DNA of 64,000 nucleotides from Myxococcales bacterium (GTDB taxonomy: Bacteria > Myxococcota_A > UBA9042). The notes beneath the pieces are model-generated. The model saw only the letters and a program-made list of their open reading frames with translations, had not been told where the DNA came from and did no database searches. Positions 29,442-30,079 of the stretch are shown one piece after another. The stretch lies in assembly GCA_947499075.1 (NCBI GenBank), contig CANMNA010000001.1, positions 8,615-72,614 of the forward strand, given 5' to 3'. Each line of letters begins with the position of its first letter. Positions within the stretch are counted from its first letter, which is position 1. The position numbers and the translations under genes were made by a program.

Positions 29442-29991
29442 TTCGCCCCCACGCCCGGGCCGACTGGCTTGCGGCGGGTTCCGGCACGGTGCCGGAACGT
29501 CCCCCCATCGGGAAAGGAGCCTTCGCAGCGCACAATTTCCGGTCGGCGACGCTGACTGGACCGTGATCAACCTGATGCTGAACCTAGTTCGGCGGTAGGA
29601 GCGAGCGCGGAGTGCACTGCAAGAGGTCGGCGGCCTACACGGACCCCGGCCCTCCGCGAAGGTACGATGGGCGCCCTCACGGGCCCAACTGCATCCAGCT
29701 CGCGCTGGTTGCGCCGCAGCGCCGCTCAAAATGGCGTTTCGGTTGTTCAAGTTGGGCTTTCTGGTGGTGAATCCTCGCGAAGCGGCATACCGCGGGTCGA
29801 GGTCGTGTCAGTTGGCTGCGCTGCAGTCGGGTGACGTGCCTCGGTTTGGCGATGTTGCAAACGCACTCCGGCGAGCTCAGGCGCGCACCAGCTGGTGTAC
29901 CGCCGGTTCGCCAGGTACCAGACCGCCTTGCCAACGCGGATCCCCGCGCAAACAGGCCTTGGATCGAAGTTGCCGAGGTCCAAAGAAGGCC

Positions 29992-30079
29992 GAAGCCAGA
30001 ACGAAGCCAGAACGAAGCCAGAACGAAGCCAGAACGAAGCCAGAACGAAGCCAGAACGAAGCCAGAACGAAGCCAGTTC
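29992..30079 (+). repeat. Tandem repeat, 11-bp unit GAAGCCAGAAC x7 perfect plus 1 degenerate
   Basis: Units start at 29992, 30003, 30014, 30025, 30036, 30047 and 30058. The degenerate unit GAAGCCAGTTC is at 30069-30079. The array ends 47 nt before the rpsL ATG. Confidence 0.95.

Follow-up and report, generated by a model that had tools for sequence, protein, structure and literature searches.

An 11-bp tandem array upstream of rpsL in a freshwater Myxococcota genome is probably a young, near-neutral VNTR in a poorly conserved part of the leader

An uninterrupted series of 11-bp units directly in front of rpsL, and hence of one of the most highly expressed operons, raises the question of whether it serves the expression of this operon, binds a protein, is a product of the assembler, or is an ordinary repeat of variable length. 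The array was analyzed within a stretch of 64,000 nucleotides, here called the window, which comes from contig C1 of a MAG of 2.64 Mb (144 contigs, ~62% complete, 64% G+C). The closest named relatives are freshwater "Myxococcales" MAGs, e.g., Baikal-deep-G136, whose EF-G is 88% identical. The elements of the locus in the immediate vicinity of the start codon are the following.

29980-29991, plus strand: degenerate proto-unit CCAAAGAAGGCC, which opens a 97-nt T-free run (direct reading)
29992-30079, plus strand: tandem array of seven perfect GAAGCCAGAAC units and a degenerate eighth unit
30076-30087, plus strand: hairpin GUUC-GAAA-GAAC with a GNRA-type loop, predicted in the MFE fold; the last array unit merges into it
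30127-30531, plus strand: rpsL, coding for ribosomal protein S12, with rpsG, fusA, and the S10/spc clusters behind it (Pfam assignments from the identical ENA contig)

Direct reading showed GAAGCCAGAAC seven times without error at positions 29992-30068, followed by GAAGCCAGTTC as the eighth unit at 30069-30079. TRF called the array at 29991-30076 with a period of 11, 7.8 copies, 100% matches, and a score of 172, so that the seven perfect units and one degenerate unit recognized by an earlier reading of the sequence alone (the sequence-only reading) were confirmed in both ways. A degenerate GAAGGCC is located immediately 5′ of the array, and the proto-unit at 29980-29991 is possibly the seed from which the array expanded. 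The plus strand is indeed free of T across 29980-30076 (97 nt), because the GAAGCCAGAAC unit itself contains none; this run ranks third longest among the 42 T-free runs of at least 60 nt in the genome, which also has 37 A-free runs of at least that length. The rpsL ATG is located at 30127, preceded by GGGAG at 30112-30116, and the array ends 47 nt before the start codon, exactly as the sequence-only reading had placed it; all descriptive statements of that reading were correct. In same-genus leaders, GTTCGA-type motifs recur at the position of the 30076-30087 hairpin.

A coding function of the array was considered and rejected. Being T-free, the array has neither start nor stop codons, and the long open reading frames that run through it are for this reason artefacts: all three plus-strand frames are open merely for want of T, and a change by five units shifts the frame. 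In all relatives, S12 begins with MPTINQL behind a GGGAG ribosome-binding site.

Whether the array is part of a transcript depends on the region further upstream, for which the following two elements were identified.

29413-29441, plus strand: sigma-70-like promoter TTGACA-17-TACACT, the sole promoter-like site in 29100-30200
29500-29676, plus strand: structured leader core with the helices P1 (CCATCG/CGATGG), P2 (CCTTCGC/GCGAAGG), P3 (GCAG/CTGC), and P4 (GAGG/CCCTC)

No intrinsic terminator was predicted in 29100-30200, and no other sigma-70-like promoter lies between rpsL and the divergent gene upstream of it. Transcription of the rpsL (str) operon probably starts from the site at 29413-29441; the array would then lie ~550 nt downstream of this site in the 5′ leader, which at the level of prediction supports the leader position that the sequence-only reading had considered. 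The TTGACA element and a CGCCCCC block downstream of the promoter are conserved in 22 relatives. In more distant Myxococcales, TTGACA-17-TATAAT-TCGCCGCCC lies only ~100 nt from the rpsL ATG, and therefore the distal site is most simply taken as the str promoter; the family would then, again most simply, have acquired a long structured rpsL leader. The leader would have a length of 450-710 nt, and the array is located in its variable 3′ part. Among RNA runs, only conserved rpsL words were shared with the locus, and no metatranscriptome contained it.

The upstream part of the leader is conserved in sequence and structure. From 16 sequences, RNAalifold predicted four helices, and compensatory double changes were seen in 10 of their 28 pairs; P4 is a covarying hairpin closed by GAGG/CCCTC. 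Of 81 relatives, 32 have this core (110-180 nt) upstream of rpsL, and practically all of these belong to the same family (f1), the comparison being based on loci L001-L004 and L092-L115 and on window region 29413-29700. Its sequence follows the scheme CCATCGGGAAAGGAGCCTTCGCAG ... CTGCAAGAGG-hairpin-CCCTCCGCGAAGGYACGATGGGCGC and includes an invariant SD-like block, GGGAAAGGAGCC, and an invariant anti-SD-like block, CCCUCCGCGAAGG. Many relatives possess a second CCCGCGAAGUGG motif further downstream, which could compete for the CCUUCGC strand. A cmscan search of both strands of 28000-34000 against Rfam 15 gave no match at E ≤ 1 for either the array or the leader. The core is a candidate for a new ribosomal-operon leader or riboswitch and for a new cis-regulatory RNA of the str operon. 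The 3′ part of the leader with the array does not align between genera. Core-to-ATG distances range from 186 to 456 nt among relatives, the longest being that of the window (456 nt; 368 nt if the array is subtracted).

A second public assembly allowed us to compare the length of the array between two versions of the same locus. On both sides of the array, over 9,950 bp leftward and 10,486 bp rightward, the MEGAHIT contig k141_1311616 (independent ENA assembly ERZ27280213; 65 kb, 65,386 bp) shows 100% identity to the window. The array itself comprises 7.8 units in the window and 2.8 units (two full ones and a partial one) in k141_1311616. The only other difference within these 20 kb concerns a second array at the end of fusA.

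33237-33280, plus strand: sister VNTR with the 15-bp unit AAGAGCAAGGGCTAG, 2.9 copies, polymorphic (1.9 copies in k141_1311616, 2.9 in the window)

The unit AAGAGCAAGGGCTAG corresponds to the very end of fusA, namely its final four codons and the TAG stop (KSKG*), and the stop codon itself is tandemly duplicated. Widening the comparison to 32 kb added a single SNP, and two further arrays in this region (17 bp × 3.1 and 21 bp × 5.4) were unchanged. A second contig pair, C46 and k141_4150950 (14.7 kb), differed by one SNP and two array indels: relative to C46, k141_4150950 lacks two units of an 8-bp array and one unit of a 13-bp array, and its 21-bp array is unchanged. For the kinase of C13, a protein look-up returned no exact record. 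Overall, ~47 kb of compared sequence contained length changes in four of seven arrays, two SNPs, and no other indels. In all four cases, the shorter version is the MEGAHIT (k141) contig, and part of the length difference could therefore reflect collapse of perfect repeats by the assembler. A 21-bp array of 13.1 copies (275 bp) is located at 56669-56943 of the window; by coordinate arithmetic, the ENA contig ends within it, at ~56,840, consistent with an assembler unable to cross it. For arrays longer than a read, copy numbers are unreliable in all of these assemblies.

Evidence closer to the reads was obtained from Logan unitigs (k = 31) of two lake metagenomes, X1 and X2, which come from two different studies. 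In both, the two unique flanks run into the array, and the periodic k-mers of the array are present at raised depth. For the 11-bp array, only depth is informative, because all 31-mers of a 2.8-unit allele also occur in longer alleles; Logan contigs (k = 31) end within the array. In X2, 31-mer depths were 18.3 and 16.5 for the flanks, 49.8 for the ten cycle k-mers, and 65 for the entry/exit k-mer. The difference between entry/exit and cycle depth, 15.2, matches single-copy coverage, and division of 49.8 by 15.2-18.3 gives 2.7-3.3 extra cycles, corresponding to a mean of ~5.5-6.1 units as judged by k-mer depth rather than by spanning reads. A pure 7.8-unit population would be expected to show a cycle depth of ~76-92, a pure 2.8-unit population a cycle depth of 0. 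In X1, k-mer depth corresponded to ~4.4 units, at very low depth. At the fusA array, the X1 unitig graph also forks, with a 46-nt unitig (depth 2.5) that is specific to the 2.9-copy allele and a 31-mer unitig (depth 2) that matches 33236-33265 plus one nonmatching base. We infer that the latter is the junction k-mer unique to the 1.9-copy allele, the identity of the nonmatching base not being displayed.

Each of three data sets thus gives the locus a different length, the values being assembly or depth estimates rather than directly seen alleles of the 11-bp array. Two assembler-independent observations, the fusA unitigs in X1 and the k-mer depth in X2, argue that the length heterogeneity is real. 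The array is real as well and not fabricated during assembly; only its exact length per cell is uncertain. Copy-number slippage, which the sequence-only reading had considered likely from the perfection of the units, agrees with the difference of five units between otherwise identical assemblies and with the intermediate mean in X2.

We then asked whether the unit or the array is shared with other loci or genomes. Outside the array, GAAGCCAGAAC occurs only twice in the genome, which is the level expected by chance because the reversed control pattern occurs six times per strand. An exact scan of 241 million JGI/ENA metagenome records for two adjacent GAAGCCAGAAC units returned only two unrelated low-complexity contigs. 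None of the 25 same-family genomes inspected, nine of them from the same genus, has the array in its rpsL leader, which speaks against a conserved role. Some relatives bear degenerate repeats of their own in this segment. Two loci (L003/L112) have unrelated repeats of the GTGCGCGACA/18-bp type ~40-110 nt upstream of rpsL, and two close relatives, G008 (L097) and G007 (L098), share a CGGCCGTT-type repeat ~30-80 nt upstream of the gene, with 6.5 and 4.4 copies, respectively. Since these unrelated repeats occupy the same relative position, comparison of the leaders suggests that this segment repeatedly hosts the products of slippage.

The rpsL array is also one of many in its genome. A TRF census of the whole MAG (period 7-45, at least 3.5 copies, at least 88% identity, nonoverlapping) identified 94 short-period arrays, corresponding to 36 per Mb, with periods of 8-36 bp and a different unit in every case. 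Nineteen of them are perfect, and by copy number the rpsL array is the longest of these. Coding on both flanks was tested with a self-trained codon model, and 83 of the 94 arrays failed; a stricter test against called genes left 45 as clearly intergenic. The latter are distributed over divergent, tandem, and convergent spacers in numbers (12/25/8) close to those expected from spacer bases (11.6/26.6/6.8). A role of the arrays as marks of promoters or 5′ UTRs was accordingly rejected, their distribution being proportional to spacer length. Periods that are multiples of three were found in 26 of the 45 intergenic arrays versus 15 expected (binomial p = 8e-4), possibly because many arise where genes end, a place that would tolerate in-frame duplications only; the fusA array is an example.

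The sequence-only reading had attached meaning to the 11-bp period, as being close to one helical turn, and to the lack of T. Neither withstood the genome-wide comparison. A helical-phase meaning was rejected, since the arrays show no excess of periods at 10-11, 21-22, or 32-33 bp. Arrays located up to 300 nt upstream of start codons have, in sense orientation, the mean composition of intergenic DNA (A.19, C.33, G.32, T.16), and T-freeness of the rpsL array is therefore not a property of the class. In six relatives, array density ranged from 0 to 45 per Mb (samples of up to 200 kb, one of 134 kb), with about 7 per Mb in unrelated bacteria; array richness consequently varies within the group and does not single out the rpsL locus. 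Among close relatives, one same-genus genome reached 45 arrays per Mb and two others 5-10 per Mb (samples of up to 200 kb; G007 loci L131-L140 against G002, G003, G011, and G018), which hints at lineage-specific differences in slippage or repair.

With these data, the alternative explanations can be weighed. The number of units might tune the leader in the manner of a contingency locus, altering its length or an unstructured, U-free ribosome standby region in front of the RBS, and subpopulations would thereby inherit different expression of str/S10/spc. In favor of this, only 47 nt separate the array from the rpsL ATG, its position is within the probable 5′ UTR, no other perfect array of the genome is longer, and its copy number differs between otherwise identical genotypes. 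ViennaRNA folding of 29448-30160 also predicted weaker pairing in the array than elsewhere in the leader, with mean unpaired probabilities of 0.51 and 0.32, respectively. The predicted accessibility of the RBS/AUG, however, is much the same with the array of eight units, with one unit, and without it (0.59, 0.47, and 0.55, respectively). In addition, the 25 relatives that lack the array have leaders of unconstrained length, and identical behavior is shown by arrays that could not tune anything, namely those between convergent genes and those behind stop codons. Phase-variable contingency loci, as known from Neisseria, Haemophilus, and Campylobacter, are repeat tracts with units of 1-7 bp in promoters or coding regions. 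The rpsL array resembles them as a putatively hypermutable repeat tract near a gene start, for which the assemblies and k-mer data indicate heterogeneity in length. It differs in its 11-bp unit, in its location outside both promoter spacer and reading frame (550 nt after the promoter-like site and 47 nt before the ATG), and in its target, a housekeeping ribosomal operon with no apparent on/off logic; to our knowledge, ribosomal operons are not usual targets of phase variation. Overall, regulation by unit number is unlikely. A modest tuning effect on the str operon may nevertheless be exerted by an array that is the longest perfect one and precedes one of the most highly expressed operons, and both the lack of conservation and the folding predictions suggest that the array is probably near neutral.

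The sequence-only reading had also drawn attention to parC of plasmid R1, in which 11-bp iterons, arranged in two blocks of five flanking a promoter, are bound by ParR. By analogy, the rpsL array would represent eight helically phased DNA sites that are bound cooperatively, either in the parC/ParR manner or by a repressor or activator of the str operon. Direct repeats with an 11-bp period are what the two have in common; this period is close to one helical turn, and the units of the rpsL array are perfect. The rpsL array is, however, a single uninterrupted one with a variable number of units (2.8 to 7.8), it is located in the leader of a chromosomal ribosomal operon (str/S10/spc) and not on a plasmid, and no promoter-like site was found within or beside it. 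Genes up to 10 kb on either side code for a 564-aa protein, a glycoside hydrolase, an MFS transporter, and ribosomal proteins, and none of them is a DNA-binding gene or has a ParM, ParR, ParA, or ParB domain; the statement that partition genes are missing was thus borne out. The direct neighbors, rpsL and the gene of the 564-aa protein, which is of secreted type and has no Pfam match, include neither parM/parR nor another DNA-binding gene. Because the unit is confined to this locus, apart from the two chance-level copies, and because its number varies, the sequence comparison makes specific binding by a dedicated protein unlikely. The array is moreover absent from relatives, and a binding protein of its own would have to be postulated for each of some 90 other arrays, whose units are unrelated and whose periods range from 8 to 36 bp. 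Phased iterons in the parC/ParR manner are hence extremely improbable. Little more can be said for the idea that the array, or its length, arose during assembly. De Bruijn assemblers do mis-resolve perfect tandem repeats, the two assemblies disagree (7.8 versus 2.8 units), and all four array differences point in the same direction. Yet both junctions and the raised-depth periodic k-mers are present in read-built unitigs of two independent studies, the X2 cycle depth excludes both zero extra units and a pure 7.8-unit population, and both alleles of the sister 15-bp array were found as read-derived k-mers in one sample. This makes an artefact very improbable.

We therefore favor, with a probability of roughly 75%, the interpretation of the array as a young, species-specific VNTR (minisatellite) that is near neutral and lies in the poorly conserved, dispensable 3′ part of the rpsL leader. 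Three of its elements, slippage at the rpsL array, transcription of the leader, and near-neutrality, are ones that we infer. Specifically, a local GAAG(G)CC...GAAC seed would have expanded into the array, through either slippage during replication or unequal recombination, and the array would be transcribed as a weakly structured stretch of the 5′ UTR composed of A, C, and G only. It would be tolerated because the spacing between core and RBS is unconstrained, and it would have no dedicated binding partner. In nature, the number of units would drift within populations, and expression of the str operon would be affected only slightly, if at all.

Bacterial VNTRs or minisatellites serve for MLVA typing in, e.g., Xanthomonas, Ralstonia, Burkholderia, Yersinia, and Mycobacterium. 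Like these, the present arrays consist of identical head-to-tail units of ~10-40 bp, mostly located between genes and bordered by conserved unique flanks; copy number differs between nearly identical genomes, related species have no array or a different one, and slipped-strand mispairing offers an explanation. The features that define a VNTR, i.e., head-to-tail units of ~10-100 bp with high identity, a copy-number difference within identical flanks, and lack of conservation at the orthologous site, were all found for the rpsL array, the copy-number difference being subject to possible assembler collapse in the 2.8-unit contig. Differences concern the host, an uncultured freshwater Myxococcota MAG with ~36 arrays per Mb, the location inside the leader of the rpsL operon, and the source of the polymorphism, which was derived here from assemblies and k-mer depth rather than from typed isolates. 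Within the phylum, mutation-accumulation lines of Myxococcus xanthus have shown that 27 of 39 indels (69%) added or removed one unit of a tandem repeat, a 16-nt motif among them, and that insertions predominated (21 versus 6 deletions) (PMC11069108). By analogy, these rates may be regarded as a measured precedent for insertion-biased array growth, and insertion-biased unit changes fit young, perfect, expanding arrays. The rates were, however, measured in a cultured species, whereas the present arrays are known from sequence data. Apart from the M. xanthus paper, we found no description of such arrays in Myxococcota in the literature.

As an ordinary VNTR, the array would be useful at most as a strain marker for an uncultured freshwater Myxococcota population, and it serves as a warning that the lengths of perfect repeats in MAGs are unreliable. 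A more far-reaching view, in which the array is a hypervariable spacer within an undescribed family-wide leader RNA and unit changes provide lineages with heritable set-points of the ribosomal operon, is quite unlikely; if it were true, changes in array length rather than SNPs would be the main micro-diversity of the lineage. Of greater interest than the array itself are two results obtained along with it: the conserved leader core, and the finding that array-length changes outnumber SNPs. With four array changes versus two SNPs in ~47 kb, most of the micro-diversity of this lineage may stem from slippage.
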